A DNA stretch of 64,000 nt from an uncultured Candidatus Saccharibacteria bacterium (GTDB taxonomy: Bacteria > Patescibacteriota > Doudnabacteria > UBA920), in assembly GCA_964348935.1 (NCBI GenBank), contig CAYGEJ010000001.1:51807-115806 (forward strand), given 5' to 3'. The translations under genes were made by a program, and so were the position numbers. Shown piece by piece: positions 12,125-57,399 of this stretch (within the stretch, counting starts at the first letter, position 1; each line of letters begins with the position of its first letter). The notes under the pieces are model-generated. The model searched no databases. It saw nothing but the letters and a program-made list of their open reading frames with translations, and was not told where the DNA came from.

Positions 12125-12130
12125 ATAAAA

Positions 12131-12189
12131 GGGCGGGAAATGTCTACGACTTGCAGGTGTACGTAGATCAATTCTCGCCCTTTGTTTGG
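12131..12189. terminator. bidirectional intrinsic terminator (nested hairpin followed by a U-run on both strands)
   Basis: GGGCGGGA...UCUACG-loop-CGUAGA...UCUCGCCC followed by UUUGUUU on the + strand and UUUUAUUUAU on the - strand. Sits right after the radA stop and at the 3' end of the minus-strand peptide transcript. Confidence 0.5.
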
Positions 12190-12300
12190 AGCCCCATGAC
12201 CCCACTAAAGACTACCTGTCCGGGAAGTGGTTGGTTCCACTTCTCAGGCCTGGCAAACTGTGCCAGAGTCTCAAGTGAGAAAACGGTTCTGGGTTCTTGG

Positions 12301-12495
12301 TTATACAGGCATCAGGCCTGTCGTTTGGAAGACACTGAGACTACCTTTCTTCTCCGGTTTGGAGATTTTTTGAAAAGGTTCATGGCACATACTGCATTTT
12401 TGTGCCGCAATTGGCTGTAATATTCCACAGCACCAAGTTTCAGGTGGTCCCGTTTGAAGAACCTTTTTTGGTTCAGTCTCGGGTTTATTCTTCAT
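12301..12495 (-). CDS. small Cys/His-rich peptide (64 aa) with a zinc-ribbon-like CC..CxxCH motif
   Basis: ATG preceded by UAAGGAGCAACUACC. Sequence MKNKPETEPKKVLQTGPPETWCCGILQPIAAQKCSMCHEPFQ... The C-S-M-C-H-E-P-F segment is reminiscent of the CSxCHPF zinc motif of ribosomal protein L31, but the overall match is weak. Lies in a GC-enriched intergenic island. Confidence 0.45.
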   Translation of the reverse strand: MKNKPETEPKKVLQTGPPETWCCGILQPIAAQKCSMCHEPFQKISKPEKKGSLSVFQTTGLMPV

Positions 12496-12578
12496 GGTAG
12501 TTGCTCCTTAATTGATACCGATATGGCAATCGGCTGTCTATACCAGAAGGCAATCCGGCACAGACCTAACAAATCCCC

Positions 12579-12622
12579 CTGAAGATTTCATTTATTATAC
12601 TGAAATCTTCAGAAATGTCAAT
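12579..12622 (-). promoter_or_regulatory. consensus sigma70 promoter (TTGACA-N16-TATAAT) with the -10 hexamer inside a 12-bp inverted repeat, a putative operator
   Basis: Minus strand reads aTTGACAtttctgaagatttcagTATAATaaatgaaatcttcag. Arms CTGAAGATTTCA / TGAAATCTTCAG flank the -10. The -35 begins 2 nt after the recG stop codon. Confidence 0.4.
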
Positions 12623-12625
12623 CTA

Positions 12626-14689
12626 CTATTCAAAATGTATAATTTTTCCTTCGATTTTCTTTGCAAGTAGTAGGAAGTTTTTTAAGTTTATATCCACACT
12701 TATTATTTTTATGGCTTCCTCGCGGGCAATAGGAATTAAAGAAGTGTATGCAGGGGAGAAGTATTTAAAATTCCAACCAGATTGTTTGAAGCCATAAAGG
12801 TCGCCAAAGCCTCTTTGTTTTAAGTCTAGCTCGGCAAGCGCAAAACCGTCGGTGGTTTTACTAAAATCTTCCAGGCGTTTTTTGGTAAGTAAATATTGTT
12901 CTTCGTTGTTTATACCAACAGTTTCAGACATAAACAAAAAACAATAACTTTGATGCTCAGCTCTACCCACACGACCACGGAATTGGTGTAGTTGAGCAAG
13001 TCCAAAACGCTCAGCTCCTTCAATAAGCATGACCGATGCATTGGGGACGTCTACCCCAACTTCTACTACAGAAGTAGAAACTAGAATGTGAATTTTTCCA
13101 GCCAAAAAGTCCGCCATAACTTGGTCTTTATCTGCACTACGCATTTTTCCATGTAAGAGCCCAACGTTTAAACCTTTAAAAATTTTTTGCAAGGTCTCGT
13201 GCTCAGCTTTAGCAGACTTAATTTGTAAGCTTTCATTTTCTTCTATTAGTGGAGTTATTACAAAGGCTTGTCTGCCTTGTTTAATTTGTTCAGAAATAAA
13301 ATTATAAGCCTCGGTTCTTGAGTTTGGTTCTACTAAAAAAGTAGAAATAGCTTTTCTGCCCTGTGGTTTAGTTTTTATTTGGGAAATATCCAGTTCGCCA
13401 TAATAGGCAAGTTGTAGTGTTCTTGGAATGGGTGTGGCGGTAAGTGAGAGTAAATGCGGGACGCGACCTGTATTTTGCAAAAGAGAAGAGCGTTGCTCTA
13501 CGCCTAGCCTGTGTTGTTCGTCTATGGTTACCAGAGCTAATTTTTTAAATTTTACTTTGTCTGCAATTAAAGCATGGGTACCAAAATAAATACCAGGCAT
13601 TCCTTCAGCAAGGAGCGCCTGAAGTTTTTTCTTTAAAATTACTTCGCCGTTTAATTTACACTCTTTACTTGTAATTAAAGCTATAGTTACATCTTTAAAA
13701 TATTTTTGAGCAGAGGCGTAATGTTGTTTGGCAAGTATTTCTGTTGGAGCTAGGAACGCTGTCTGAAGTTCTTCTTTAGCGGTTTCTAAACTGGCAATAA
13801 AAGCTACCAGAGTTTTTCCGCTTCCAACATCACCCTCAACTAAACGATTCATAGGGGTATTTTTTTCAATATCTTTTAAAATATCCCAACTGGCTTGTTT
13901 TTGGGCTGGAGTGAGTTGGAAAGGCAGGCTGTCTACAAAGGATTTGACTAAATCTTTATTAAACTTAATTTTATAACTTTGTCTTAAGGCAAGTTCCTTT
14001 TTGTGCTTTTGGGCAAGTAGTTGATTTATAAATATTTCTTCAAACGCCAGCCTGGTTTTAGCTCGGTCTACCTCTTCCAGTTGTTTTGGGAAATGGCTAA
14101 TGTTAATTGTTTTTGAAATTGTTAGTAAATTGTATTTTTTTAAAATATCTTCAGGGATAATTTCTTCGACCTCGGTTGCTAATGAAAGTATGTTATTTAT
14201 TAAGTTTCTTAGCGTTTTTGGGTAGAGTCCTTCAGTCATGTGATAAATTGGGACAAGGCGGGCTGTGTGAAGCGGGAAATCGGAAATTTTTTCGTATATG
14301 GGATTGGTTAGTTGGAGTTGGTTGGCGTAATATTCCGGTGTACCGGACAGGTAGAGTTGGTCGCCTGGCTTTAGACTTTTGGCTAAGTAGGGTTGGTTGA
14401 ACCAAATAATTTTCAAAGCCCCGGTAGTGTCGAATACCTGGGCTTCTGCAAGTGATATATAACTTTTAAAAGATTTTCTACTCCCTATGCTTTTTAGCGT
14501 AACGGCTATAGTAGCCGGTTGTTCAGGGATTAGTTCTTGAATTTTTTTAGTGATTGAAAAATCTAAATATCTAAACGGAAAGTATAACAAAAGATCTCGG
14601 ACTGTTAAAATTCCGAGTTTTTTTAAAGCCGCAATTTGCGGCTTTGTAATTTTAGGAAGTACTTGAATTGGCGAGTTTATATTTAGCAT
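12626..14689 (-). CDS. recG: ATP-dependent DNA helicase RecG
   Basis: Wedge/helicase architecture. GDVGSGKT Walker A, DEQHRLGV (DEQH box), QFRGRVGR motif. 687 aa. Confidence 0.9.
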   Translation of the reverse strand: MLNINSPIQVLPKITKPQIAALKKLGILTVRDLLLYFPFRYLDFSITKKIQELIPEQPATIAVTLKSIGSRKSFKSYISLAEAQVFDTTGALKIIWFNQPYLAKSLKPGDQLYLSGTPEYYANQLQLTNPIYEKISDFPLHTARLVPIYHMTEGLYPKTLRNLINNILSLATEVEEIIPEDILKKYNLLTISKTINISHFPKQLEEVDRAKTRLAFEEIFINQLLAQKHKKELALRQSYKIKFNKDLVKSFVDSLPFQLTPAQKQASWDILKDIEKNTPMNRLVEGDVGSGKTLVAFIASLETAKEELQTAFLAPTEILAKQHYASAQKYFKDVTIALITSKECKLNGEVILKKKLQALLAEGMPGIYFGTHALIADKVKFKKLALVTIDEQHRLGVEQRSSLLQNTGRVPHLLSLTATPIPRTLQLAYYGELDISQIKTKPQGRKAISTFLVEPNSRTEAYNFISEQIKQGRQAFVITPLIEENESLQIKSAKAEHETLQKIFKGLNVGLLHGKMRSADKDQVMADFLAGKIHILVSTSVVEVGVDVPNASVMLIEGAERFGLAQLHQFRGRVGRAEHQSYCFLFMSETVGINNEEQYLLTKKRLEDFSKTTDGFALAELDLKQRGFGDLYGFKQSGWNFKYFSPAYTSLIPIAREEAIKIISVDINLKNFLLLAKKIEGKIIHFE

Positions 14690-14774
14690 TTAAACTCTAT
14701 TAAAATAAAGATTCCTTGCAGTAAGAGAGGGGGTGTATTAACTTCCTGGTTTGAGTCTATCAATAAAGACGTAT

Positions 14775-14954
14775 CTAAGTTGTTAATAAATTTGCCAGAA
14801 AATATATAATAATAACTAGTGGCCAAAGAAAAGTGAGATATAAAAAGGTTATAATTTTTTCAAGTAGGGGGACATCTCCAATTTTGGAAGTTAAGAAGGT
14901 ATATACTCCGATACTTAAATAAAGTATGGTAAAAAGGACGAGTTTCTTTTTCAT
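14775..14954 (-). CDS. possible 59-aa two-TM membrane peptide
   Basis: ATG-initiated ORF MKKKLVLFTILYLSIGVYTFLTSKIGDVPLLEKIITFLYLTFLWPLVIIIYFLANLLTT, just downstream of the 157-aa membrane protein gene on the same strand. Below the ORF-track length cutoff. No RBS check possible. Confidence 0.25.
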   Translation of the reverse strand: MKKKLVLFTILYLSIGVYTFLTSKIGDVPLLEKIITFLYLTFLWPLVIIIYFLANLLTT

Positions 14955-14974
14955 TTTTGTTTTTCACAAAATTT

Positions 14975-15448: not shown

Positions 15449-15581
15449 ATGTTAATTTTTATTTTTTCGTCTAAAATCTCAATTTATAAATTAAATGTTT
15501 ATTTCTAAAAGCTTGCCCCGATCCTGTTTTTAAATAATTTTCAAATCTTCTAGCTAATAGTCTGTTTGGAAAACTACAAAA

Positions 15582-15770: not shown

Positions 15771-15785
15771 AGCTTTAGCGAAGTG

Positions 15786-15875
<90 letters not shown>

Positions 15876-16178: not shown

Positions 16179-17351
16179 CTAGTTTCCTATAAATTGAGGT
16201 GCGGGATCTTCTAAGATGAATGACCCTATTGCCTGGTTTGGATCAAGAACTTCTTCAGTAGAAATTGTCACACTGGAATTTGTCGCAGTGGCAGTCTTGG
16301 TAATAATAGTGGTAATAGTGCCTGTCGAGGTACCTTTAACTATTGCTTCGGAAGCTTCAGGGTTCGTTAAGATTATTTTTGTGGCAATTATATGGTTGAT
16401 ATTTTTTGTTCCAGAAACGTTAACTTTTGTATTTAATTTTAGGTCGATTGCAGAAATATTTTTTCCAGATTCGTCCAAGATAATTGTTTGAGTGTTAATA
16501 ATAAAGTTGGTTTTTTCAACAGTGATTTCGTCTTTGGTAATTTTCGTTATGTAACCCAAAACAATAACTGAGTTTAGATCAGAATTTAATTTAGTAAGAG
16601 CTTGGTCATTGCTGGCAATAGCAACCAAATTTTTAATCTCAGTAATTTTGGCTGAGGATTCATTTAAAGCAAGTTGGGCAGTGTTGGCTTCCAGCCGAAC
16701 TTCGTTACTGGATTTTATTTCTGTCAGCAGATTCTGCTGGTCTTTGGTTAAGGTCTCCAAGGTGATAAGTAGAGGGTGATTTTTATCCGATTGGGGATTA
16801 TTCTTAGTTACGGAACTTACTACTTCTATAGCATTATTAGTTTGATTAGTTAATTCTTTTAAAGCTGCCTGTTCGTCTTTGGTGTCACTATTTGGGTTGT
16901 TAAAAATTTCCCTGGCCTCATTGAGCCTTTTTTGAGTAATTTTTATTTGTAAATCGGCTTTTTTGTCCTGGTTATATGCCAAAATCACTTGTAATTGTTC
17001 GGTAGTTTTTTTCACTGAAAACAACACTTGTCCAGGTGCACTTCTTAAGGAAATTAAGCTGGTGAATAAAAACATACTTACCAATAGCATTATACTCATA
17101 CTAACTCCCGCAAATTTGGAAATATGGAGCCAGGCAAGCCAAAAAGATTTTGTAGGAGCAAGTATATATTTTCTTTGCATGGCCGGTTCTGGGACAATAT
17201 TTTTTGGCAAGGTGGAAAGTGTTAGAGAAATATCTAAAAGGGGAGAGAGTTCTTTTTCGTAATCTGGGAAAACAAAAAGCACCTCTTCTTTCGAGTGGCC
17301 GGAATGCAACATATCCATTGCTTTATTATAAATGTTTTCTATGTTATTCAC
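16179..17351 (-). CDS. putative anti-sigma factor / membrane-anchored coiled-coil protein (partner of the ECF sigma)
   Basis: 390-aa ORF immediately downstream of the ECF sigma gene on the same strand. Cytoplasmic N-terminus, one TM helix (FAGVSMSIMLLVSMFLFTSLISL) and a long coiled-coil or Thr-rich extracytoplasmic region. Assignment is by context. Confidence 0.5.
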   Translation of the reverse strand: MNNIENIYNKAMDMLHSGHSKEEVLFVFPDYEKELSPLLDISLTLSTLPKNIVPEPAMQRKYILAPTKSFWLAWLHISKFAGVSMSIMLLVSMFLFTSLISLRSAPGQVLFSVKKTTEQLQVILAYNQDKKADLQIKITQKRLNEAREIFNNPNSDTKDEQAALKELTNQTNNAIEVVSSVTKNNPQSDKNHPLLITLETLTKDQQNLLTEIKSSNEVRLEANTAQLALNESSAKITEIKNLVAIASNDQALTKLNSDLNSVIVLGYITKITKDEITVEKTNFIINTQTIILDESGKNISAIDLKLNTKVNVSGTKNINHIIATKIILTNPEASEAIVKGTSTGTITTIITKTATATNSSVTISTEEVLDPNQAIGSFILEDPAPQFIGN

Positions 17352-17429
17352 CCAGTTTTTAAATTTAAAAATAAATAAATTATTGGTAGTTTATTATTAT
17401 ACAGCCTGAGAAGTGAGGATTTTTTGAAT

Positions 17430-18026
17430 TTAACGGAGATCTTTATTATCTAATTTTATTAATTCTTGAAGTTTTGTAATTGCACGGTGTTGTATGACCC
17501 TAATAGCACCTTCGCTTTTATTTAAAATTTCTGAGATTTCACTGTTATCTAAATCTTCAAAAAATTTAAGTTTTAAAACAATTTGTTGGTCTTGAGGTAG
17601 CTCCTTGATAAATTTTAACAGTGAGATTTGTTGTTGCTCCAGGTTGACTACATCGATAACATTTGTTTCATATTCCAGTGTGTTTTCTACTTCATCTAGA
17701 CTAATAGTCATTTTTTTCCCTCGGTAGTAATCTATGACTTGATTTCTCGCAATTTGGTATAGCCATCCCAAGAAAGCTTTATTTTCATTCACAGAGCTTA
17801 TTCGGGTGAAGGCTTTAAGAAAAACTTCTTCGGTTAAGTCCTCAGATATCTCTTTATGACTAACACGGAAATAAATAAAGGTATAAATTTTTTTGAAATA
17901 TAAGTTATATATTTCACCAAAGGCAGTTTGTTCGCCATTTTTGGCTTTATTTAGTAAGGACTCCAAAATACGAGGTTTGTCCTCTAAATTGCTGGAACTA
18001 ATATTAAAGACGTAGGAGTTGGTCAT
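17430..18026 (-). CDS. RNA polymerase sigma-70 factor, ECF subfamily
   Basis: Region 2 (FLKAFTRISS, WLYQIARNQVIDYYR) and region 4 HTH (DNSEISEILNKSEGAIRVIQHRAITKLQE). 198 aa. Confidence 0.8.
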   Translation of the reverse strand: MTNSYVFNISSSNLEDKPRILESLLNKAKNGEQTAFGEIYNLYFKKIYTFIYFRVSHKEISEDLTEEVFLKAFTRISSVNENKAFLGWLYQIARNQVIDYYRGKKMTISLDEVENTLEYETNVIDVVNLEQQQISLLKFIKELPQDQQIVLKLKFFEDLDNSEISEILNKSEGAIRVIQHRAITKLQELIKLDNKDLR

Positions 18027-18197
18027 TTGTTACAAGTATTTGGTAAATTATGCAATAAACTTGATTTCTCAGTAATACTCTGAAAGATATGTTAATTTTA
18101 GCAATTATTGCTATATTTTTCCATTAAAAATTAGTAATTTTTTTACTCGGTATTAATTAAAAACCCAAAAAGTTTTGCTTTAAGATTAGTTCTAATA

Positions 18198-31213: not shown

Positions 31214-31255
31214 CTAGTTGTATGTTATAAGTTGTAATAAGAATAGTAAAAAATA

Positions 31256-31289
31256 AACAACTCTGTACTATTAAAAGTACAGAGTTGTT
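31256..31289. terminator. bidirectional intrinsic terminator at the island 2 left edge (14-bp perfect stem)
   Basis: AACAACUCUGUACU-AUUAAA-AGUACAGAGUUGUU with U/A-runs on both sides. Serves gatB on the + strand and the minus-strand island operon. Confidence 0.5.
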
Positions 31290-31307
31290 TTAAAAATAAA
31301 AAAAATG

Positions 31308-31337
31308 CGTCGCCCATGCTGTGAAGCGAGGGCGACG
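31308..31337 (-). terminator. GC-rich intrinsic terminator of the minus-strand Cys-rich peptide operon
   Basis: Minus strand CGUCGCCC-loop-GGGCGACG followed by CAUUUUUUUUAUUUUU, 24 nt after the P3 stop codon. Confidence 0.5.
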
Positions 31338-31360
31338 GTTGGGTGGTTTGCGTTTCGTCA

Positions 31361-31684
31361 TTAAATAGGATGACGTGGGCTGTCGCCGAAAGGGTCGGAA
31401 TCCAGAAATTCTTTCCCTGGGTGCCCTGATTGGCTTGGTATGTCATCAGGGTTTCCAGAGGGGGTGTTGATGGTCGCACCCATCCAACCGTTATCCACAG
31501 CGGCTGAATTGTCTTCGAGGTAGTGCTCTTTCACACCACGTTTTGGCGACAGTAACCCGTCGGCGTATGGCGGGGCGATAATGATGGAATGTTGTAGTGG
31601 TTGCTGGCCAATCTTGTCGCAACAGTGACGTATGCTACAGGGTTGGTCAATTTCTTTATGGCAATTGCAAGGACATATCGCCAT
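31361..31684 (-). CDS. Cys/His-rich small protein P3 (107 aa), paralogue of the upstream 41-aa peptide plus a C-terminal extension
   Basis: Internal ATG of the 212-aa track ORF with an SD (UAAGGAGAAAAACU-AUG) that overlaps the stop of the preceding peptide gene. N-terminus MAICPCNCHKEIDQPCSIRHCCDKIGQQPL. GC-rich codon usage unlike the host. Confidence 0.5.
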   Translation of the reverse strand: MAICPCNCHKEIDQPCSIRHCCDKIGQQPLQHSIIIAPPYADGLLSPKRGVKEHYLEDNSAAVDNGWMGATINTPSGNPDDIPSQSGHPGKEFLDSDPFGDSPRHPI

Positions 31685-31695
31685 AGTTTTTCTCC

Positions 31696-31821
31696 TTAGT
31701 CTGTGAACGGGTGAGTTTGGTCGACCTCTTCGAGAGGTTTTCCTTTCTGCGAACAGCAACGGTGATTTTCGCACTCGTCGTTTTCTACTCCCACATGGCA
31801 AGAGCAGTGACAGGTTTTCAT
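31696..31821 (-). CDS. Cys/His-rich peptide P2 (41 aa): MKTCHCSCHVGVENDECENHRCCSQKGKPLEEVDQTHPFTD
   Basis: My own reverse-complement translation. ATG preceded by AAAGGAGGACUGGAAA. Not in the ORF track (under 60 aa). Shares C-x-C-x-C-H-x(6,7)-C-x(2,3)-H-x-C-C-x-K-x-G-x-x-P-L with P3. Confidence 0.45.
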   Translation of the reverse strand: MKTCHCSCHVGVENDECENHRCCSQKGKPLEEVDQTHPFTD

Positions 31822-31881
31822 TTTCCAGTCCTCCTTTGAATGAAATAGTAGCAAGAAAAGGGGAAAAAGGCAAAAAGAAAA

Positions 31882-31911
31882 CGCGGACAGGGTGGCAAGC
31901 CACTGTCCGCG
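31882..31911 (-). terminator. intra-operon intrinsic terminator or attenuator between the PEP-CTERM gene and the Cys-rich peptide genes
   Basis: Minus strand CGCGGACAG-UGGCUUGCCACC-CUGUCCGCG followed by UUUUCUUUUUGCCUUUUUCC. Confidence 0.4.
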
Positions 31912-31973
31912 TAAAGGTTGTAATGCGCGTTGCTATTTTTACCCAGCACTTTGCCGTGTGGTGGGGTTTCTTC

Positions 31974-32720
31974 TTACCGCTGGCGCCGTATCGCGGCAAT
32001 GCCTACGAGTCCAGCACCCATCAGTACGAAGGTCGTGGGTTCGGGAGTCTCGGTCCCAAGTCCACCCGACGGCTGGCTCGGAAAGCTGTAGTCCCAATAC
32101 TCAGGGTGGCGGTAAAAGTAAGGAGTGTGTTCACCCCTCAGGTAGTTTACAATCTCCCCAAGGTTGTTGATGTCGTAGGAGAACCACACTGAGGCGAGCA
32201 AGTAGTTATCGGTGTAACGATAACCGCTGTTAGTGCCGGCACAACCGCCACTAAGCCCTGCCAGAACCAAATCCCGGCAGTCGTAGGTACTGGTGGTGTT
32301 TTCTGATACCGCAATAAGCGACCTCGATTTTTGTCCGTAAACATGGGTTATGTTCTCGAACGGAAATAGGACTGTCTGGATATACGAGTTCGTTATAAAA
32401 CTCAACGATTCGTACAAGGTGTTAGTCCGTCCCGAGTTACTGGTTGGGTCTGTGAACATAGTAATGCTTACTTGATTGTCTTTTCTTTCGTTGAGACTTG
32501 AACCCTGGTAACTCGTAATCCAGCGACCAGAACCATCTGGGGCTTCGTATGACCCCTGATAGGTGGTGAGTGTGCGATAGTTGTAATCGTACCCATTGGC
32601 ATAACCACCATCTAAGTTGAGGTTCCAGGGCTGAAAATCGTCCTGGAGGACGATTGTGCCGGCCGTTGCCGACATGGCCAGAGCAAAAAAGCCGAACATA
32701 GAAATAAAAAGAGCGCGCAT
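31974..32720 (-). CDS. PEP-CTERM sorting-domain protein (secreted, Gly/Tyr/Asn-rich)
   Basis: Internal ATG with strong SD (AAGGAGGACUUAC-AUG). Signal peptide MRALFISMFGFFALAMSATAG. C-terminal TPEPTTFVLMGAGLVGIAAIRRQR is the PEP-CTERM tripartite motif (PEP, TM helix, Arg cluster). 248 aa from this start. The track ORF extends upstream to 32879 with no RBS. Confidence 0.6.
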   Translation of the reverse strand: MRALFISMFGFFALAMSATAGTIVLQDDFQPWNLNLDGGYANGYDYNYRTLTTYQGSYEAPDGSGRWITSYQGSSLNERKDNQVSITMFTDPTSNSGRTNTLYESLSFITNSYIQTVLFPFENITHVYGQKSRSLIAVSENTTSTYDCRDLVLAGLSGGCAGTNSGYRYTDNYLLASVWFSYDINNLGEIVNYLRGEHTPYFYRHPEYWDYSFPSQPSGGLGTETPEPTTFVLMGAGLVGIAAIRRQR

Positions 32721-32838
32721 GTAAGTCCTCCTTAAGGACTTGTGGAGCTTAAAAGCTCCACGGTTTTGTTCTTGGTTGGCCTTTAGGGGCCGAAAATAAA
32801 TAGATCGAACTGTTAAAAGTTTTACAGGTCGACGATAT

Positions 32839-32867
32839 ATTATACTCTTTTTTTGGGTTTTTGTCAA
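32839..32867 (-). promoter_or_regulatory. consensus sigma70 promoter (TTGACA-N17-TATAAT) of the island 2 operon
   Basis: Minus strand cattGACAaaaacccaaaaaaagagTATAATatatcg. About 115-nt structured 5' UTR, including a hairpin that pairs part of the SD (AAGUCC-UUAAGGA-GGACUU) next to the start codon. Confidence 0.4.
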
Positions 32868-32878
32868 TGCTAAATACA

Positions 32879-32906
32879 AATAACACCCTTATTTAAGGGT
32901 GTTATT
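32879..32906 (-). terminator. hairpin terminator or insulator at the island 2 right edge, downstream of the HTH gene
   Basis: AAUAACACCCU-UAUUUA-AGGGUGUUAUU (11-bp stem) then UUGUAUUU on the minus strand. Sits between the HTH gene stop and the island promoter. Confidence 0.4.
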
Positions 32907-32970
32907 TTTGGTTATTAGGTATTAGCTTATAGGTTTTAGTACAAAATTTATATTTTATACATAATTAAAG

Positions 32971-47247: not shown

Positions 47248-47637
47248 ATGGATAATACAAGAAAAAGAATTTTAGTAGTAGAAGATGATGCAGATTTAAG
47301 AACCGTACTATCGGATAAGTTAGAAACTTTGAATTATCAGGTTATTCAAGCTGGAGATGGCGAAGAGGCTATTACTCTACTTTTAGATGAAAAGCCGGAT
47401 TTAATCCTTTTGGATTTAATGTTACCAAAATTAGATGGGTTTAAGGTACTAGAGCGAATAAGGCATTACCCTGAAGAGGTTATTGCTTCCACTAAGGTCA
47501 TTGTTTTAAGTAACCTTTGGAGCGATAAAGACATTCTTAGGGCCCAGGCTTTAAAAGTAGACGAATATTTTGTTAAGGCTAATACTAATTTAGACGAAGT
47601 TTATACCAAGATTAAAACGATTATTTCCTCTAAATAA
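47248..47637 (+). CDS. response regulator receiver-domain protein (CheY-like, stand-alone)
   Basis: ILVVEDDADLR...LILLDLMLPKLDG...VIVLSN. Conserved Asp pocket and phospho-acceptor D. 129 aa, no output domain. Confidence 0.75.
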   Translation: MDNTRKRILVVEDDADLRTVLSDKLETLNYQVIQAGDGEEAITLLLDEKPDLILLDLMLPKLDGFKVLERIRHYPEEVIASTKVIVLSNLWSDKDILRAQALKVDEYFVKANTNLDEVYTKIKTIISSK

Positions 47638-50447: not shown

Positions 50448-50465
50448 TTATCTATTAAGTAAATA

Positions 50466-50494
50466 AGAAAGCCGGTGCATGGTTTGCACCGGCT
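50466..50494. terminator. rplA intrinsic terminator, also usable from the minus strand
   Basis: GCCGGUGCA-UGGUU-UGCACCGGC followed by UUUUGAUUU on the + strand and UUUCUUAUUU on the - strand. Confidence 0.55.
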
Positions 50495-50519
50495 TTTGAT
50501 TTGGGCGACGAAGTCATGG

Positions 50520-50654
50520 TTAGACTCCCCACAGGTATTGGTCATCATCAGGTTCTTGTGTTGTTGGTTGATCCAGTTTTTTATTGTTGGATTCCTCGTA
50601 AGGAAATCCGGTTGCATCTGCTTGATGAAAATCGCGTTGTGTATCGCTTTGCAT
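50520..50654 (-). CDS. possible 44-aa acidic peptide (MQSDTQRDFHQADATGFPYEESNNKKLDQPTTQEPDDDQYLWGV)
   Basis: My translation. ATG preceded by AAAGGGGGGCUUAUU. Lies between a minus-oriented terminator (50728-50750) and the rplA terminator. Not in the ORF track. Confidence 0.25.
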   Translation of the reverse strand: MQSDTQRDFHQADATGFPYEESNNKKLDQPTTQEPDDDQYLWGV

Positions 50655-50767
50655 AATAAGCCCCCCTTTGTGGCCTAATATCTGAGTATTTAAATAAACA
50701 GTCAGATATTAAAACACAAATAAAAACCCCGCTCCTTTTAGGGAAGCGGGAATTAAAGTTAAAGTAA

Positions 50768-50860
50768 TTAATTACTTGTTATAACCTTAACGAACCCAAA
50801 TTCCCTGGAGGAAATAAGGCTAAGAAGGAGAGACAACAAGTTTTGGTAAATATTTTTCAT
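50768..50860 (-). CDS. leaderless 30-aa hydrophobic peptide or sRNA module (MKNIYQNLLSLLLSLISSREFGFVKVITSN) driven by a consensus promoter
   Basis: Minus strand TTGACA(50891-96)-N16-TATAAT(50869-74), ATG 8 nt after the -10. Intrinsic terminator CCCGCU...AGCGGG-UUUUUUAUUUGUGUUUU at 50728-50750. Transcript about 130 nt and rich in anti-SD-like CUCCUUCUU/UUCCUCC. Coding status uncertain. Confidence 0.25.
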   Translation of the reverse strand: MKNIYQNLLSLLLSLISSREFGFVKVITSN

Positions 50861-50967
50861 GTATATAAATTATAGCTGATTTGGAAAAAGTGTCAAATGA
50901 CAAAATGAAAGCGACCCAGACTGCTTTCTCACTCGGTAAAGGTGAAGGGCTGTGGGGTCGCTTGTCG

Positions 50968-51246
50968 CTATTGGTTTGGCGTTAAAATCACCTCCTTTGA
51001 TGATTTGATTGCGGTTGGTTTTTGTACCATCCGTCGTGCTTCTCCAGCAAGTGAAGTTTCGTTTATTCTGGCAGACCAGATAAAGCGAGTTTCCTCTTGT
51101 GCAAGGTAGAAGCAGAATTCGTAATTCTCGTTACGGTGTTGAGCATTGTCTTTTAGGACAATGGTCACGCTTTTTCCGTCGAGAGTCGCGCTTATTCCAA
51201 CACAGGGAAAGTAGTTTTCAATTGGGTAAAGCAACTGCAGGGTCAT
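50968..51246 (-). CDS. hypothetical 92-aa protein (island 3)
   Basis: ATG preceded by AAAAGGAGCGUUU. GC-rich codons. Followed by a 7-bp stem/long-loop hairpin plus U-run. No recognisable domain. Confidence 0.45.
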   Translation of the reverse strand: MTLQLLYPIENYFPCVGISATLDGKSVTIVLKDNAQHRNENYEFCFYLAQEETRFIWSARINETSLAGEARRMVQKPTAIKSSKEVILTPNQ

Positions 51247-51352
51247 AAACGCTCCTTTTGTGGACTAAAAATTAAATCGACTCGGTGTCAATTTATTTTC
51301 CTAAGCCACAAAAAAAACCCGCCGCGGCGGGGAAGTAAGCTTAAATAAAACT

Positions 51353-51454
51353 TTAGCTATTTATTTCCCACAACCGCATAAATAAAGACTTGATGGACTT
51401 AGTGCCCATTTTGGTTGTCTTCTTGCTAATTTGGGAAACAATGAATAAATTCAT
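51353..51454 (-). CDS. second leaderless small-ORF or sRNA module (33 aa: MNLFIVSQISKKTTKMGTKSIKSLFMRLWEINS)
   Basis: Minus strand TTGACA(51484-89)-N17-TAATAT(51461-66), then ATG at the predicted TSS. Terminator CCCGCCGCGGCGGG-UUUUUUUU at 51318-51331. Transcript about 140 nt. Coding status uncertain. Confidence 0.2.
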   Translation of the reverse strand: MNLFIVSQISKKTTKMGTKSIKSLFMRLWEINS

Positions 51455-51540
51455 ATGAATATATTAAAGTATTTTAGAAATATTGTCAAAAAAATTCCCC
51501 GCCGGTTTGTAAGAGCCGGCGGGGTGTTTTGGATACCTTG

Positions 51541-51795
51541 CTACTTCAATAGTTGTAGATTTTGGCGGGCCCAGTTAATGAGTTCCTGCATCTCTTTTTT
51601 TGTAGGTTTTTCAAGCCCAAAGCCTTTGCCGTTTTTGTTCGAATAACCCTCACGAGACTGGCCACATAAAGTCAGATCGTGGTGTTGAAGAGGGTCTAAA
51701 CTTAGACTCAGCATCCTCATTCTGAGAGATTCGCCTTGAAGTTGAAATCCATATATTGCCTTCCCATTGGAAAGGTGGCCGTGAATTTTTTCCAT
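51541..51795 (-). CDS. hypothetical 84-aa protein (island 3)
   Basis: Internal ATG (MEKIHGH...) with SD UUUAAGGAGUGGGAAC-AUG. The track ORF starts 24 codons upstream with no RBS. Followed by terminator CCCCGCCGG-UUUGUAAGAG-CCGGCGGGG. Confidence 0.45.
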   Translation of the reverse strand: MEKIHGHLSNGKAIYGFQLQGESLRMRMLSLSLDPLQHHDLTLCGQSREGYSNKNGKGFGLEKPTKKEMQELINWARQNLQLLK

Positions 51796-51869
51796 GTTCC
51801 CACTCCTTAAAGTTTTTTTGCAACTTGGTTCTGGGGTTCTGTTAAAACTCCAAAATTTAGGTAACAAAA

Positions 51870-51893
51870 AACTCCTTCCGCCAAGGCGGAAGG
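51870..51893 (-). terminator. minus-oriented intrinsic terminator at the island 3 right edge (11-bp stem then U6)
   Basis: CUCCUUCCGCC-AA-GGCGGAAGGAG followed on the minus strand by UUUUUUGUU. No minus-strand gene lies upstream of it, so it reads as an insulator. Confidence 0.4.
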
Positions 51894-52074
51894 AGTAAAG
51901 TTTAAGTAAAAAACTATTAACTCAACCGTCTTGGAAAAGAAAGAATAATAATGCTTATAATAGAAATTTTATCCTGAATTAACTTCATACAAAGTAATTT
52001 TAAAGGAAACCTAGCCTTTTTGTCAATTACTGTAAGATATAGTAGAATTGAATATATTACTAAAATAAAATTAT

Positions 52075-52608: not shown

Positions 52609-52614
52609 TTTTAT

Positions 52615-53617: not shown

Positions 53618-53626
53618 AAGAACAAT

Positions 53627-54166: not shown

Positions 54167-54167
54167 T

Positions 54168-54908
54168 ATGGCGTTACTTAAATTTGGAAAATCAAATAAA
54201 AAACATCATACCCAAAAAGGGAAGTTTGTTGTTATTGACGGTACTGATGGCAGTGGTAAAGCGACTCAGACTCAAAGGTTGGTAGAAACTTTAAAAACCG
54301 AAGGCTATATGGTGGAAATGGCGGACTTTCCACAGTATGGAAAAAAGTCAGCCGGGCTAGTAGAAGATTATTTAAACGGCAAATATGGACAGGTGAGTCC
54401 GCAGGCTGCATCTATTTTTTATGCTGTAGATAGATTTGATGCTTCTTTTCAAATTAAGAAATGGCTCGAGGAAGGCAAGATTGTGGTTTGTAATAGGTAT
54501 GTAACGGCTAATGCAGGACATCAAGGTGGTAAAATTGCCGACGATATAGATAGGATGAAGTTTTTTCGATGGTTGGACAATTTAGAGTATGGAATTTTTA
54601 ATATCCCAAAACCAGATTTAAATATTATTTTGCATATGCCTGCAGAAATGGCACAGAAGTTAGTAGACCAAAAGTCAGCTAGTTCTCGTGAATATGTTGG
54701 TGGTAAAAAGAGGGATTTACACGAAGCAGATTTAGATCATTTAAAAAATGCGGAACATGTGTATATGGAAATTGCAAAACTTTTCCCAAATACTAAGTTA
54801 GTAGAGTGTGTACAAGAAGATAAATTATTAACTAAAGATGAGGTTCATAATAAAGTTTGGGCTTTAGTGAGAAGAATCGCTTTAAAAGATTTAAAACCAC
54901 AAAATTAA
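54168..54908 (+). CDS. tmk: thymidylate kinase
   Basis: P-loop [17 protein letters not shown]-like motif (AVDRFDAS), lid region. 246 aa. Confidence 0.85.
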
Positions 54909-54913
54909 AAAAT

Positions 54914-55726
54914 ATGCAAGTATATCACGACTTATTAAAAAAAATATTAGCAGATGGCGTTCAAAAGCACGACCGTACTGGGACTGGAACTAAAAGTATT
55001 TTTGGTTACCAAATGCGTTTTAATTTAGCAGAAGGTTTTCCTTTAATGACTACTAAAAAAGTTCATTTAAAATCTATAATTTATGAACTGCTTTGGTTTT
55101 TAAAAGGGGACACTAATGTAAAGTGGTTGAATGAAAATGGAGTAACTATTTGGGATGAATGGGCAGACGAGAATGGTGATTTGGGGCCAGTATATGGAAA
55201 GCAGTGGCGCGCCTGGAAAGGTTACAGTGGAGAAACATTTGACCAAATAGCTTACGTGGTAGACCAAATTAAAAACAATCCTGACAATAGAAGAATGGTA
55301 GTTTCTGGTTGGAATGTGGCAGACTTGCAAAGTTTAATTGCGGGCAAAAAAACCGCACCACCACCATGCCATACCATGTTTCAGTTTTATGTAGCTAATA
55401 ATAAACTTTCCTGCCAGCTTTACCAACGAAGTGCAGACGTATTTTTAGGAGTACCATTTAACATTGCCTCTTACGCACTTTTAACTATGATGATAGCGCA
55501 AGTAACCGGTAGAGAGCTTGGAGACTTTGTTCATACTTTGGGAGATGCACATATTTACAACAACCATTTTGAACAAGTAAATTTACAACTTTCCAGAACA
55601 CCAAAAGCACTTCCAACAATGAAAATAAACCCAGAAGTGAAAGATATTTTTAAGTTTCGTTACGAAGATTTTACTCTAGAAGGTTACAACCCAGACCCAG
55701 GAATTAAAGCACCTATTGCAATTTAG
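54914..55726 (+). CDS. thyA: thymidylate synthase (ThyA)
   Basis: From the internal ATG ([12 protein letters not shown]...). Motifs [26 protein letters not shown], active-site PPCH. 270 aa. Confidence 0.9.
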
Positions 55727-55791
55727 ACGACTGGACAACTTTAACGCATTTTATACTACCCTCTAATCCCTAATCGCTATTCACTAACTAC

Positions 55792-56271
55792 ATGATTTCA
55801 ATAATTGCTGCTGTAGCGGAAAATAATGTTATAGGTATAAACAACACTCTTCCGTGGAATATCCCAGAAGATTTAAAACATTTTCAGGAAGTTACCAAAG
55901 GTAAAATTGTTTTAATGGGCAATAAAACATTTGAGTCTATTGTTTCTATTTTGGGTAAGCCACTGCCAAACAGAAAAAATGTTGTGGTAACATTAAATAA
56001 ATCCTATACTGTGCCAGCTGGAGTGGAGTTGGAGTTTGATTTATTTAATGCTTTAGAAAAATATAAAAATGAAGATTTATTTGTAATTGGCGGGGCGCAA
56101 ATTTGGAAATTGGCTTTGCCATTTGTAGACCAGTTGTATATAACTCACGTACATAAAAATTATGAAGGCGATGCTTTTTTCCCAGAAGTTAACTGGCAAG
56201 AATGGGAAAAAGTAGAAGAAGAAAAGCATTCAGAGTTTACATTTGCTAAATACATAAAAAAATCCCCATAA
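55792..56271 (+). CDS. folA: dihydrofolate reductase
   Basis: MISIIAAVAENNVIGINNTLPWNIPEDLKHFQEVTKGKIVLMG is the canonical DHFR N-terminus. 159 aa. Stop codon lies in the loop of a CCCCA-UAAU-UGGGG hairpin. Confidence 0.85.
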   Translation: MISIIAAVAENNVIGINNTLPWNIPEDLKHFQEVTKGKIVLMGNKTFESIVSILGKPLPNRKNVVVTLNKSYTVPAGVELEFDLFNALEKYKNEDLFVIGGAQIWKLALPFVDQLYITHVHKNYEGDAFFPEVNWQEWEKVEEEKHSEFTFAKYIKKSP

Positions 56272-56334
56272 TTGGGGTTTAAATTTAAATTGTGGCCGAA
56301 AGTGTAATTCGGCCGAAGTTTTTCGGACTCTTTG

Positions 56335-56547
56335 TTAGGAGTCCTGTTTTTTTGGTTGCTCAAGTCGGATCGCGGTTTTGTACGCCCATTTGGAAATGGG
56401 CATGAAAATCGAGATTCCATGGAGTATGGTCACTCCTACGGTGTTGCTAGTGCAACTTTCGGGAGTGTAGCACGCTCCATTTGCCATGGGTATTACCCAA
56501 AACTCGAGTGCCAGGCTCAGTAAGCCAAAACCAAGAAACCAATACAT
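56335..56547 (-). CDS. secreted or membrane-anchored 70-aa peptide with two Cys (island 4)
   Basis: ATG preceded by GUAGGAGGGCACA. Signal or TM segment MYWFLGFGLLSLALEFWVIPMANGA, then CYTPESCTSNTVGVTILHG... Divergent from the RHH regulator gene. Its stop overlaps a folA terminator hairpin. Confidence 0.45.
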   Translation of the reverse strand: MYWFLGFGLLSLALEFWVIPMANGACYTPESCTSNTVGVTILHGISIFMPISKWAYKTAIRLEQPKKQDS

Positions 56548-56654
56548 TGTGCCCTCCTACGGGTCATTGTTTGCAAAGACTTGTCAATTATTCTTTGCAC
56601 ACTAATTTTGCCATAAACCTTTGGGAATATCCATACCCCCAAAAAACGGTACCC

Positions 56655-56683
56655 TTGACAAAACGGGTAAAAGGGTGTATAAT
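56655..56683 (+). promoter_or_regulatory. consensus sigma70 promoter (TTGACA-N17-TATAAT) for the RHH regulator gene, with a second TATAAT 15 nt downstream
   Basis: cccTTGACAaaacgggtaaaagggtgTATAATaatcaattttttgtTATAATttg. Lies 50 nt upstream of the ATG at 56734. Confidence 0.4.
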
Positions 56684-56733
56684 AATCAATTTTTTGTTAT
56701 AATTTGTGAGCTCTGGTTTTTGAGATAATCGTT

Positions 56734-57174
56734 ATGTCACAATATATCGATCGTCACAAAAACAAACGTATGGTTGCACCAAGACTGTGCGAAACCGAAA
56801 TCCAAAAGCTCATGGCAACAAGGATGTTGCCAGGTCACGACCGCCATTCGAGGTTAGAGTTTTTGCTTACGCTAATGACCGAATTAGCCGAGCAGGAACT
56901 TGAATATCGTTTGGCGCCTACTAATACAGAGGCAAGGCATGGGCACGGAACACATCTTCGTATTTCAGACGAGCTGTGGGACAGATTACAAACCTATGCT
57001 TCAGTGTATAGGATGAGAACAGGTGAGCTTGCTCACGAACTGATACTGCTTGGCCTAGAGCTAGTGGAAGAAATAGAGAAAGTGGTCAAGTGGCCACTTA
57101 GGAAGGAGGAGATAAAAAGCCGGTTTAAAAGGACACTTGAACTTCGGTATGGGCGCATGCGCCAGCCGATTTAA
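56734..57174 (+). CDS. tandem ribbon-helix-helix (RHH) DNA-binding protein, putative repressor
   Basis: Two beta-alphaA-alphaB units: KRMVAPRLCETEIQKLMATRMLPGHDRHSRLEFLLTLMTELAEQ and THLRISDELWDRLQTYASVYRMRTGELAHELILLGLELVEE. GC-rich. 146 aa. Confidence 0.5.
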   Translation: MSQYIDRHKNKRMVAPRLCETEIQKLMATRMLPGHDRHSRLEFLLTLMTELAEQELEYRLAPTNTEARHGHGTHLRISDELWDRLQTYASVYRMRTGELAHELILLGLELVEEIEKVVKWPLRKEEIKSRFKRTLELRYGRMRQPI

Positions 57175-57399
57175 GACCTTACCGGGTCACACCTAAATGC
57201 AGTTTAAAACCCGCCTGGGGCCTTGCTCGCGCACAATTGTTACGTATGCGACAAGGCCTCTTAAATTTGGTAAAAATAAATGATATACTTAGTAAATGAA
57301 TCCCTTTTTAAAAAGGGATAGTCCATTATAAAGGGTTTTTGTATCTTTAAAATTTATTTCTTTATTATTTTAGGAGTAAATTAGAAATTTCAAACAAAG

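Follow-up and report, generated by a model that had tools for sequence, protein, structure and literature searches.

Background

How do four GC-rich blocks with textbook-perfect expression signals come to lie between the core genes of an AT-rich bacterium? The window analysed here is a 64-kb stretch (64,000 nucleotides) of a 221,754-bp contig that is present in NCBI, ENA and Logan and belongs to an uncultured groundwater bacterium, Candidatus Doudnabacteria, of the Candidate Phyla Radiation (CPR/Patescibacteria). The four blocks, termed islands, span positions 12125-12625 (island 1), 31225-32910 (island 2), 50448-51900 (island 3) and 56272-57330 (island 4). An original prediction, made from the sequence of the window, had described them as compositionally foreign and had offered a dispersed accessory system, recent horizontal gene transfer (HGT) or engineered cassettes as possible sources.

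We regard the four islands as probably being natural, long-resident, lineage-specific accessory transcription units of the Doudnabacteria chromosome, located in intergenic gain/loss hotspots. As judged from sequence, each island unit appears to combine a host-type sigma70 promoter at maximal strength, a structured 5' leader, Shine-Dalgarno (SD)-dependent translation and intrinsic terminators. The islands are old and vertically inherited with occasional loss or replacement, and they are under purifying selection. They are independent units of a common style rather than one machine. Functional statements throughout are based on sequence and predicted structure.

Composition and expression signals of the islands

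The window has a GC content of 36% and a gene content of ordinary core genes, including radA, recG, gatCAB, secA, miaA, holB, frr, proS, mreBCD, PBP2, folD, nusG-rplK-rplA, prfA, ftsEX, rplI and clpB, together with a dNTP-metabolism block (dCMP deaminase, dUTPase, tmk, thyA, DHFR) and a cluster resembling a type IV secretion system (T4SS). All four islands have CPR core genes as neighbors, namely radA/recG (island 1), gatCAB/miaA (island 2), rplA/dCMP deaminase (island 3) and DHFR/prfA (island 4), and these flanking host genes are intact at every site. The assignment to CPR further draws on the thymidylate kinase of the window, for which the orthologs carry the names Candidatus Doudnabacteria or Patescibacteria, and on a groundwater Patescibacteria metagenome-assembled genome as the best match in GTDB species genomes. 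As originally described, the islands are GC-richer than their flanks, with values of 0.451, 0.472, 0.403 and 0.434 for islands 1-4 compared with 0.355 for the background. Among background windows of equal size, the share that reaches the GC content of the island is 0.003, 0, 0.021 and 0.002, respectively; the GC content of island 3 is thus only modestly raised.

The difference is sharper at third codon positions. Host genes (n=57) have a third-position GC content (GC3) of 0.281 +/- 0.031 with a maximum of 0.341, and the proposed check for codon-usage outliers, carried out within the window, placed eight of the nine island open reading frames (ORFs) above that maximum (0.38-0.58; the nine values are 0.38, 0.58, 0.52, 0.50, 0.31, 0.45, 0.44, 0.54 and 0.47). 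Third positions of island genes are nearly unbiased (A.26, C.28, G.21, T.25) as opposed to those of the host (A.34, T.37). Translation signals divide the genes in a similar way. SD matches of 5 nt or more were found ahead of only 4 of 57 host genes but of 7 of 9 island ORFs, in which they comprise 6-8 nt of TAAGGAGG; the exceptions are the gene for a 146-amino-acid (aa) protein, which has no SD, and a 44-aa ORF with a weak one. When every start codon in the window was scanned, genuine ORFs that begin with ATG and combine an SD of 6 nt or longer with a GC3 of 0.39 or higher were found in the islands only, so the original list of islands is complete for the window. A relative, L091, is also SD-poor, with no match above 5 nt among 25 genes (L-numbers denote the related loci or contigs that were compared, and P0002 a homologous protein). 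This near-total absence of SDs from core genes of the window and L091 is a notable trait for a CPR clade.

Perfect promoters of the form TTGACA-N16/17-TATAAT number exactly four in the window, compared with 0.03 +/- 0.17 in shuffled sequences; every island has one, co-oriented with its genes. The contrast drawn originally between consensus promoters with long SDs and an SD-poor host was therefore confirmed. Terminator-like sites (hairpin followed by a T-run) occur at about twice the shuffle expectation. In line with the claim that strong hairpin terminators bracket the islands, the strongest GC-rich terminators are concentrated there; several edge hairpins are the host genes' own terminators, partly bidirectional. 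Host genes also have hairpin terminators and sigma70 promoters matching 11/12 consensus positions (22837, 47697). In type, the promoters and terminators of the islands match those of the host and differ only in being stronger; it is SD dependence and composition alone that are un-host-like. The view of the islands as accessory units expressed in a distinctive style was borne out. Their products had been characterized as small and Cys/His-rich, secreted or regulatory, which fits the Cys/His motifs in the 64-, 41-, 107- and 70-aa ORFs (three islands), a PEP-CTERM protein and a ribbon-helix-helix (RHH) protein, but not the three island 3 proteins, which lack such features.

Searches of the window with Rfam at gathering thresholds and with ARAGORN returned only two tRNA-Ser genes, both outside the islands, and structured-RNA genes (rRNA, RNase P etc.) were thereby ruled out as the cause of the GC-rich blocks. 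Permissive Rfam searches of islands 1 and 3 gave only sub-threshold matches driven by terminators. Island proteins had no match in PHROGs or PADLOC. A repeat comparison found no sequence or regulatory motif common to the four islands, and the lack of shared repeats rules out one mobile element in four copies. No convincing flanking repeats or target-site duplications and no integrase were found, and a simple regular-expression test found no attC-like sites (RYYYAAC ... GTTRRRY) in any island. The islands further differ from integron cassette arrays and clusters of attC sites lacking an integron-integrase (CALIN), in which cassettes are usually promoterless, in that every module here has its own promoter and the hairpins have T-runs.

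Natural origin and age of the islands

Contigs assembled independently from runs ERR3094302 and ERR3094292 are 100% identical to the window over 11-13 kb. These matches span islands 1, 2 and 4 including both junctions of each. Island 4 is also present in two ENA assemblies, and the 92-aa product of island 3 was found in an independent Logan assembly. Because they are 100% identical in independent public metagenome assemblies, the islands are not engineered.

Synonymous divergence (dS) and the ratio dN/dS were calculated by the Nei-Gojobori method between the window and its relatives. Island genes have a dN/dS of 0.10-0.34 and a dS of 0.8-1.7, as compared to a dS of 0.4-2.1 for flanking host genes in the same genome pairs; accordingly, the island ORFs are real selected genes that have diverged together with the chromosome. 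Relatives that carry orthologous islands at the same sites have host proteins with differences of 4-45%. For the PEP-CTERM protein of island 2, 5.8 billion protein clusters contained one non-self homolog (P0002, 63% identity), and the 146-aa family of island 4 comprises five representatives of clusters at 50% identity in 1.84 billion; in these sets, neither protein gave a homolog from beyond the clade, and 2.9 million viral contigs contained no relatives of the two. P0002 is encoded in a relative from SRR12901047 (L008) in the same place, between miaA/84-aa and gatB. The L008 island has a GC content of 0.46-0.57 versus ~0.35 in its flanks and keeps the promoter, leader, SD, terminator and all three genes of island 2. 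Island 4 follows DHFR in L090, which is from the same SRR12901047 relative (79% nt and 82% aa identity), in a third genome, L095 (53% aa identity), and, in diverged form, in L098 and L099/L100 (family profile E = 4e-8 and 1e-13). Divergence of the 146-aa protein has the same rank order as that of DHFR. Homologs of islands 2 and 4 are located at the same chromosomal sites only.

The proposed comparison with sister genomes did reveal empty sites. Between DHFR and the release factor 1 (RF1) gene, the RHH family is present in the window and five loci, and four relatives have an empty site, namely L091 (gap of 41 bp), L097 (4 bp), L102 (54 bp) and L108 (overlapping genes); these empty sites confirm the precise intergenic placement claimed for the islands in the case of island 4. 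In L107, the site holds another gene with no significant match to the RHH family (E = 0.32) and a GC3 of 0.68 versus 0.45-0.55 for the host. The rplA-dCMP deaminase site (island 3) measures 0.6-2.5 kb in different genomes. GC-rich, SD-led small genes on the minus strand occupy it in the window, L091, L093 and L098, with no homology detected between genomes; L101 has no cassettes there and carries a host-like REC gene between the L1 and dCMP deaminase genes. L091 combines cassettes at site 3 with an empty site 4. Since other relatives are empty or carry unrelated cassettes, the sites are gain/loss hotspots, and the existence of empty sites makes gain at some point in clade history likely.

Two of the origins proposed at the outset can be judged from these data. 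Textbook-perfect promoters, SDs and terminators had suggested engineered cassettes, to which vector contamination or an assembly artefact may be added, and we now give this virtually no probability. It is refuted by the sequence identity of both junctions in assemblies of several independent environmental runs and by diverged orthologous versions, under purifying-type substitution, in other uncultured Doudnabacteria genomes from other samples; the organism's clade is itself uncultured. Recent transfer from a GC-richer, SD-using donor, with a composition that is still unameliorated, would agree with the higher GC and GC3, the SD use and the Gram-negative-type PEP-CTERM signal in an AT-rich, SD-poor CPR genome, and with the empty sites of some relatives. 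It is contradicted for islands 2 and 4, the two that could be compared, which are not recent acquisitions because they occupy the same sites in relatives with 4-45% host protein difference, are under purifying selection and have the synonymous divergence of host genes. Their GC3 has not decayed in any lineage and no homologs outside the clade came from the two protein sets. We therefore consider recent HGT very unlikely.

Maintenance of the GC-rich composition

Cassette GC3 is 0.47-0.65 versus 0.25-0.33 for the host in both members of every pair, and an offset of about +0.2 over the host value is found in every lineage examined, including the GC-richer L107. A two-state decay model with an equilibrium at the host GC3 of 0.28 and the observed synonymous divergence would leave 23-45% of the initial GC3 excess per lineage and require an ancestral GC3 above 0.85-1.0. 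As GC3 stays ~0.2 above the host in each lineage, neutral amelioration cannot explain the composition. Strand or replication bias was ruled out as a cause, since GC3 is equally high in the 146-aa gene, on the plus strand, and in the genes of the minus strand. High expression was ruled out by the ribosomal-protein genes of the window (GC3 <=0.34), and orphan status by the host-like GC3 of host orphans without a Pfam match.

It is hypothesized that selection acting on the mRNA keeps the composition GC-rich. Where a cell is AT-rich and initiates without SDs, a GC-rich message would be translated only once its SD becomes accessible; such a message would also contain no AT-rich promoters or start sites arising by accident. 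Such a GC-rich, SD-gated design would make the cassettes tightly switchable.

Like the islets of Lawrence and Ochman, the islands are compositionally deviant accessory genes that lie between core genes and are missing from some relatives. Unlike in those islets, the deviation is undecayed after ~1 or more substitutions per synonymous site in each pair. Compositional islands are usually read as recent imports, a view that the persistent GC3 gap contradicts, and GC or codon outlier screens would misdate such genes because the synonymous-site difference persists through ~1+ substitutions per site.

Island 3: three modules with putative attenuators

Island 3 lies on the minus strand and consists of three tandem modules, each with a sigma70 promoter, a leaderless mini-ORF, a terminator, an SD-led GC-rich gene and a second terminator. 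In the modules of the window, the ATG is 6-8 nt past the -10 box, the mini-ORF is AT-rich and 23-33 aa in length, and the first terminator is 17-20 nt past its stop. The genes of modules A, B and C encode 84, 92 and 44 aa. The features of the island are as follows.

51997..52026, minus strand: module A promoter, TTGACA-N18-TAAAAT (11/12; consensus match)
51917..51988, minus strand: module A leaderless mini-ORF MKLIQDKISIISIIILSFPRRLS of the Ile-run family, ATG 8 nt past the -10 box (four more members in relatives)
51871..51896, minus strand: module A intrinsic terminator, proposed attenuator, 19 nt past the mini-ORF stop (covariation across 5 genomes)
51541..51795, minus strand: module A gene, 84 aa, SD TAAGGAG (terminator follows at 51497-51524)
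51461..51489, minus strand: module B promoter, TTGACA-N17-TAATAT (10/12; consensus match)
51353..51454, minus strand: module B leaderless mini-ORF MNLFIVSQISKKTTKMGTKS... of the Thr/Lys/Met-rich family, ATG 6 nt past the -10 box (orthologs in L091, L098 and L100)
51318..51331, minus strand: module B terminator, proposed attenuator, CCCGCCGCGGCGGG then T8 (hairpin and T-run)
50968..51246, minus strand: module B gene, 92 aa, SD AAGGAG, orphan (present in an independent Logan assembly)
50869..50896, minus strand: module C promoter, perfect TTGACA-N16-TATAAT (consensus match)
50768..50860, minus strand: module C leaderless mini-ORF MKNIYQNLLSLLLSLISS... of the Leu-run family, ATG 8 nt past the -10 box (L091 ortholog MQKFNLNNLSLLLSL...)
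50727..50751, minus strand: module C terminator, proposed attenuator (hairpin and T-run)
50520..50654, minus strand: module C ORF, 44 aa, acidic, weak SD AAAGGGGGG, GC3 0.31 and host-like (the least certain gene)
50468..50496, no strand assigned: left-edge hairpin, minus-strand terminator after the 44-aa ORF (~20 nt past the rplA (L1) stop)

The left-edge hairpin probably serves rplA too. Searches with the 84-aa and 92-aa proteins detected no homologs in Pfam, NCBIfam, PHROGs, PADLOC or PDB sequences.

The module pattern was searched for in the window and twelve Doudnabacteria loci as an ATG 4-10 nt past a -10 box, an ORF of 12-40 aa and a terminator past its stop. Matches were confined to site 3 cassettes in six genomes, with a spacing of 6-9 nt and a terminator 11-26 nt past the stop. 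The peptides fall into three families. Ile-run members read ..ISIISIIIL.., ..NIISIIIIP.., ..SLIIIITP.., ..NIIIIITP.. and ..SIILSIIIP..; the Leu run ..NLLSLLLSL.. occurs in two genomes; and the Thr/Lys/Met-rich family has the form ..SQIxKxTTKxM... Across the six genomes the amino-acid runs are conserved with synonymous changes inside them. The module B mini-ORF is 78% identical at the nt level to that of L091, and the L091 Leu-run ortholog retains Ser through a switch from TCT to AGC codons. Conservation in the mini-ORFs is limited to the runs and the nucleotides of the ORF tail, with flanking residues varying, and the leader families recur before different, unrelated genes.

This layout bears on the 'geneless', insulator-like terminators of the original prediction. 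They do exist in island 3, yet they sit between a promoter with its mini-ORF and the next SD-led gene, and the leader-peptide attenuator layout of the three modules explains them. We lean slightly towards ribosome-mediated transcription attenuation as the switch of island 3, as suggested by sequence and modelled RNA structure. In this model, the terminator would be preceded by a leaderless mini-ORF with many Ile, Leu or Thr/Lys codons. Stalling of a ribosome at these codons would leave the ORF tail available for pairing with the 5' arm of the terminator, and this pairing would permit read-through into the SD-led gene. In the RNAalifold consensus of the Ile family, the Ile codons are paired with the ORF tail and the terminator is recovered with compensatory changes. 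In 5/5 Ile members, the predicted duplex between the ORF tail (nt 50-70) and the 5' arm of the terminator is better than in shuffled sequences (z -1.7 to -3.1, p 0.01-0.07). Four of the five share a pairing register, and in L091 the alternative duplex has -19.6 kcal/mol against -20.2 kcal/mol for the terminator. In-register pairing covers 77.5% of cells in this family versus 35-55% for slid registers.

The modules resemble known leader-peptide attenuators (trp, his, leu, ilv and thr, and the antibiotic-sensing leader ORFs of Firmicutes) in the order of promoter, amino-acid-run ORF, terminator and gene, and in the 1:2, 2:3, 3:4 pairing topology recovered in the Ile family. They differ in that the leaders appear leaderless (ATG 6-9 nt past the -10 box), the genes are single small orphan proteins and not biosynthetic operons, the host group has little amino-acid biosynthesis, no Rfam leader family matches, and the antiterminator is unsupported in Leu and most Thr/Lys members. 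This last point, together with the lack of significant covariation in the Ile family and with sub-threshold Rfam matches that are only to terminator-containing sRNAs, would suit mini-ORFs that are independent small genes or small RNAs (sRNAs), e.g. hydrophobic peptides akin to type I toxins, every one of them equipped with a separate promoter and terminator; transcription of the SD-led genes would then start at unrecognised promoters or result from leaky read-through. The Ile-run peptide also has what we take to be a superficial resemblance to Ibs-type toxins. We think this possible, if not quite probable. The hydrophobic stretches (~11 residues) are too short for a membrane, and the Thr/Lys family is basic and hydrophilic. 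Conservation of only the runs and ORF-tail nucleotides amid variable flanking residues, and the recovered topology of the Ile family, also speak against it, as does the space between leader terminator and SD, where inspection by eye revealed no convincing promoter in any of the three window modules. A literature search on leader-peptide attenuation or SD usage in CPR returned nothing relevant.

Two further observations concern site 3. A hairpin with GCCTTGGCG(A/G)AGG is present in the cassettes of three genomes (window 51871-51896, L091 ~5265-5300, L097 ~3845-3880) on differing stems, CCCTCC/GGAGGG and, in the window, CTCCTTCC/GGAAGGAG; it may be a conserved RNA or protein-binding motif. A REC-only response-regulator gene is located right after rplA in L093 (5468-5896), L098 (5052-5489) and L101 (1632-2066), and a REC-only gene of the window (47248-47637) lies 2 kb upstream of nusG instead. 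Gene order around the site has been rearranged.

Island 2: a PEP-CTERM protein and Cys/His-rich peptides

Island 2 is a three-gene unit on the minus strand.

32839..32867, minus strand: promoter, perfect TTGACA-N17-TATAAT (hexamers and spacer identical in L008)
32721..32838, minus strand: conserved 5' leader with three hairpins (84% mean column identity versus 73-76% for the coding sequence)
31974..32720, minus strand: gene 1, 248-aa secreted protein with signal peptide and PEP-CTERM (PF07589, TIGR02595)
31882..31911, minus strand: intrinsic terminator after the PEP-CTERM gene, hairpin then T-run (kept in L008)
31696..31821, minus strand: gene 2, 41-aa Cys/His-rich peptide MKTCHCSCH...C...H.CC, SD AAGGAGG (L008 ortholog 67%, dN/dS 0.34)
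31361..31684, minus strand: gene 3, 107 aa, MAICPCNCH...C...H.CC, SD TAAGGAG (L008 ortholog, dN/dS 0.21)
31255..31329, no strand assigned: left edge, operon terminator 31310-31329 (minus strand) and a long hairpin 31255-31290 beside the gatB stop (~90% identical to L008)

The SD is enclosed in the last leader hairpin, which is conserved with a 6-bp stem (AGUCCU-UAAGG-AGGACU) at window 32721-32760 and L008 3470-3509 and 4462-4501, and which may act as a translational switch. The preceding hairpin has compensatory changes between copies (GTGGAGC/GCTCCAC vs GTGGCGT/ACGTCAC). L008 contains an extra cassette, in which a 115-aa secreted-protein gene (4499-4846) follows a duplicated PEP-CTERM leader; duplication before a second gene indicates that the leader moves as a module.

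The PEP-CTERM signal of the 248-aa protein scores above curated cut-offs (PF07589, 26.2 bits with a cut-off of 20.7; TIGR02595, 19.3 bits with a cut-off of 16). Its C-terminus, TETPEPTTFVLMGAGLVGIAAIRRQR, consists of a PEP motif, a hydrophobic helix and a basic tail, and both this and the N-terminal signal peptide MRALFISMFGFFALAMSATAG..., read directly from the sequence, are conserved in P0002. The gene has a dN/dS of 0.19; the body of the protein is an orphan, and an AlphaFold2 model from a two-sequence alignment was unusable (pLDDT 31). Descriptions of the PEP-CTERM/exosortase system concern Gram-negative bacteria that have an outer membrane and exopolysaccharide loci, not CPR. A single paper in the searched literature names both terms; its subject is an association between Patescibacteria and Zoogloea (PMC11393006). 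The 248-aa protein shares with that sorting system the PEP motif, helix, basic tail and N-terminal signal peptide, and departs from it in its orphan body, its CPR host and the lack of an exosortase within the 64-kb window. The 41-aa and 107-aa proteins are paralogous, with the common pattern M-x2-C-x-C-x-C-H...C...H-x-C-C; a search of PDB sequences with the 107-aa protein gave nothing meaningful. A cupredoxin-like host gene adjoins the island.

Island 4: an RHH protein and a divergent putative membrane protein

Island 4 contains two divergent genes.

56264..56344, no strand assigned: left edge, three consecutive hairpins past the DHFR stop that overlap the 3' end of the 70-aa gene (kept in L090 and L095)
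56335..56547, minus strand: gene 1, 70-aa membrane protein (putative), SD TAGGAGGG (homologous ORFs in L090, L095 and L098)
56573..56598, no strand assigned: palindrome GCAAAGA-N12-TCTTTGC between the divergent genes (conserved in window, L090 and L095)
56655..56683, plus strand: promoter, perfect TTGACA-N17-TATAAT (conserved in L090 and L095)
56734..57174, plus strand: gene 2, 146-aa single-chain tandem RHH protein, putatively DNA-binding, no SD (predicted fold)
57219..57258, plus strand: terminator hairpin after the 146-aa gene, GGCCTTGCTCGCG...CGACAAGGCC (kept in L090)

The left-edge hairpins are absent from the empty-site relatives. The 70-aa product is apparently a two-helix membrane protein, with the conserved motif C-x4-C...G-V-x-x-L-H. 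The 146-aa protein has no Pfam or NCBIfam match at E up to 0.1. Its predicted structure has a beta-alpha-alpha fold in two copies that form a two-stranded DNA-reading sheet, confirming the RHH fold, and TraY-like DNA binding is predicted. In comparison to tandem RHH proteins (F-plasmid TraY, Ti-plasmid VirC2) and to RHH repressors and antitoxins (Arc, CopG, ParD, MazE), sequence identity is ~12%, and the 146-aa protein differs in an extra C-terminal helix that bears an invariant L-R-K-E-E motif. Unlike in those systems, no relaxase, oriT or toxin gene lies beside it and its partner is a small Cys-containing membrane protein. The palindrome is a candidate RHH operator or a 5' stem-loop of the 70-aa mRNA, and the RHH protein probably regulates the divergent 70-aa gene through it.

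The ENA contigs L004 (window 56156-57298) and L005 (56411-57288) are short and end within ~40 nt of the AT-rich right edge of island 4, possibly owing to low coverage or to heterogeneity among strains at this border.

Island 1: a CxxCH ORF and a predicted structured RNA

Island 1 is a single-gene unit on the minus strand.

12594..12621, minus strand: promoter, perfect TTGACA-N16-TATAAT (consensus match)
12496..12592, minus strand: 5' leader with three hairpins, SD TAAGGAG at 12504-12510 (minimum free energy (MFE) -29.9 kcal/mol, z -2.26)
12301..12495, minus strand: ORF of 64 aa with CC and CSMCH motifs (SD, GC3 0.38, gene call in independent assemblies)
12125..12300, minus strand: structured 176-nt RNA segment 3' of the ORF (MFE -70 kcal/mol, z -5.42)

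An inverted repeat (12579-12590 / 12601-12612) lies just past the recG stop and has the -10 box in its loop. The 64-aa ORF has a weak, sub-threshold match to Paired_CXXCH. None of 200 shuffled sequences was as stable as the 176-nt segment, which belongs to no Rfam family; its last hairpin (12128-12183) is a terminator shared head-to-head with radA. The segment may be a structured 3' untranslated region or an sRNA. The 8-nt word GAAATGTC is repeated directly at the two edges of the island (12136-12143 and ~12611-12618) with a chance expectation that we estimate at ~0.04, a weak hint of a target-site duplication.

Discussion

A phage moron is an autonomous promoter-gene-terminator unit that lies between genes adjacent in relatives and differs from them in composition. 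Moron-like but chromosomal, vertically inherited accessory cassettes are the closest description of the islands. PMC4378225 and PMC8065619 use the phage moron concept. At the level of sequence, the islands resemble morons in having their own sigma70 promoter and intrinsic terminator, encoding small accessory proteins, lying between genes adjacent in relatives (DHFR-RF1) and differing in composition from their neighbors. They are unlike morons in that they are found among housekeeping genes of a CPR chromosome and not in a prophage, have no phage link, are inherited vertically, and have a stable composition rather than a fading donor signature.

Two alternatives share part of this description. 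Strict moron-like cassettes could come from a GC-richer mobile pool (Doudnabacteria phages, plasmids or integrative and conjugative elements) and be delivered repeatedly to the same hotspots, such that composition reflects the pool and not selection in the chromosome. The unit of promoter, gene(s) and terminator between genes adjacent in relatives, its different composition, the unrelated cassettes at site 3 of different genomes, the unrelated gene at site 4 of L107, the high GC3 in all lineages and the T4SS-like cluster in the window speak for such delivery. However, the two largest proteins have no relatives in 2.9 million viral contigs and no PHROGs match was found; integrase, attC-like sites, convincing flanking repeats and any sequence common to the islands are missing; homologs occur at the same chromosomal sites only; and island dS equals host dS with divergence ranks that match host genes, as expected for co-inheritance. 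We consider this origin unlikely. More improbable still is one dispersed accessory system, for example for metal/redox handling or a surface structure, as had been suggested originally. The Cys/His motifs in four products of three islands, the common expression style, the co-occurrence of islands 2 and 4 in the SRR12901047 relative and the cupredoxin-like gene beside island 2 are in its favor. It is unsupported in that no sequence or regulatory motif is common to the islands, they occur independently of one another in relatives (in L091, site 3 has cassettes and site 4 is empty) and the site 3 genes are unrelated between genomes; no family match ties the products to one pathway, and the RHH protein has its own adjacent candidate target.

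Against our account of the islands as long-resident accessory units stand several points. Transcription start sites, termination and translation are all deduced from sequence. For islands 1 and 3, the relatives examined contain no orthologous genes, and age and coding status were judged from SD, GC3 and gene calls only; the coding status of the 44-aa ORF is doubtful. Selection at the mRNA level is an interpretation, and repeated replacement from a GC-richer pool or GC-biased gene conversion at recombination hotspots would give the same pattern. Antiterminator covariation is not significant across the five Ile sequences, and the antiterminator signal is absent from the Leu family and seen in 1/4 Thr/Lys members (p 0.046). 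CPR bacteria make few amino acids, which sits oddly with Ile/Leu sensing that controls small orphan proteins. A PEP-CTERM protein needs an exosortase, and there is none among the genes of the 64-kb window.

A more speculative proposal, which we hold only tentatively and think rather unlikely, is that Doudnabacteria keep a separately coded gene class of small-protein cassettes, selectively held GC-rich, SD-dependent and switched by cis-RNA devices, as a starvation or host-contact regulon. The devices would be leaderless Ile, Leu or Thr-Lys leader peptides with attenuators, SD-sequestering hairpins and structured 3' RNA. Such a regulon would have its own translational regime in an organism that, unable to make those amino acids, would have to sense host supply. 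A bolder version, far less probable again, draws on the transferred DNA (T-DNA), the genes of which carry plant signals: by analogy, the expression signals and PEP-CTERM might be kept for expression in a Gram-negative host cell after T4SS-like DNA transfer.

The CPR/Patescibacteria are a large share of bacterial diversity in which gene regulation is almost unstudied. Two translation-initiation regimes in one genome, split cleanly by gene class, are a natural system for studying anti-SD use in SD-poor bacteria. If functional, the amino-acid-run leaders with attenuators would be, in the literature searched, the first cis-regulatory sensors in the CPR radiation, and they would offer a way to learn which signals episymbionts perceive from their hosts. 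The Cys/His peptides, the PEP-CTERM protein and the RHH/membrane pair are candidate host-interaction factors restricted to one clade. The surprising parts are the persistent composition and the two-regime translation; the islands extend known kinds and are not a new category.

Other observations

ThyA was too conserved to serve as an anchor in GTDB genomes: all 80 loci were ~70% identical and came from many phyla, and only L010 and L011 among them were distant CPR or unclassified metagenome-assembled genomes, with no usable synteny. The T4SS-like genes of the window (3389-6872; PrgI, TraC-like and VirB4/TraG-type ATPase) adjoin large proteins without Pfam matches (35-3349, 6959-9454). An extracytoplasmic function (ECF)-type sigma factor (17430-18026) adjoins a DUF5667/DUF5666 protein, a possible anti-sigma partner (region 16179-18026); it could bear on cassette regulation, and no link to the cassettes was found.

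Other small intergenic insertions are present in the clade. A small gene of the bAvd / 23S_rRNA_IVP family lies inside the T4SS-like cluster (window 4588-5007), and extra genes of the same Pfam family are found in the gatB-gatA gap of L008 (7366-7719) and the thyA-DHFR gap of L090 (2751-3113), where the window has none; these genes are a second kind of small intergenic insertion. Between tmk and thyA, where the window has no such ORF, a 96-aa ORF with a GIY-YIG domain is present in L093 (10846-11136), L094 (6068-6358) and L091 (10734-11024), and it looks like a homing-endonuclease-type insertion.

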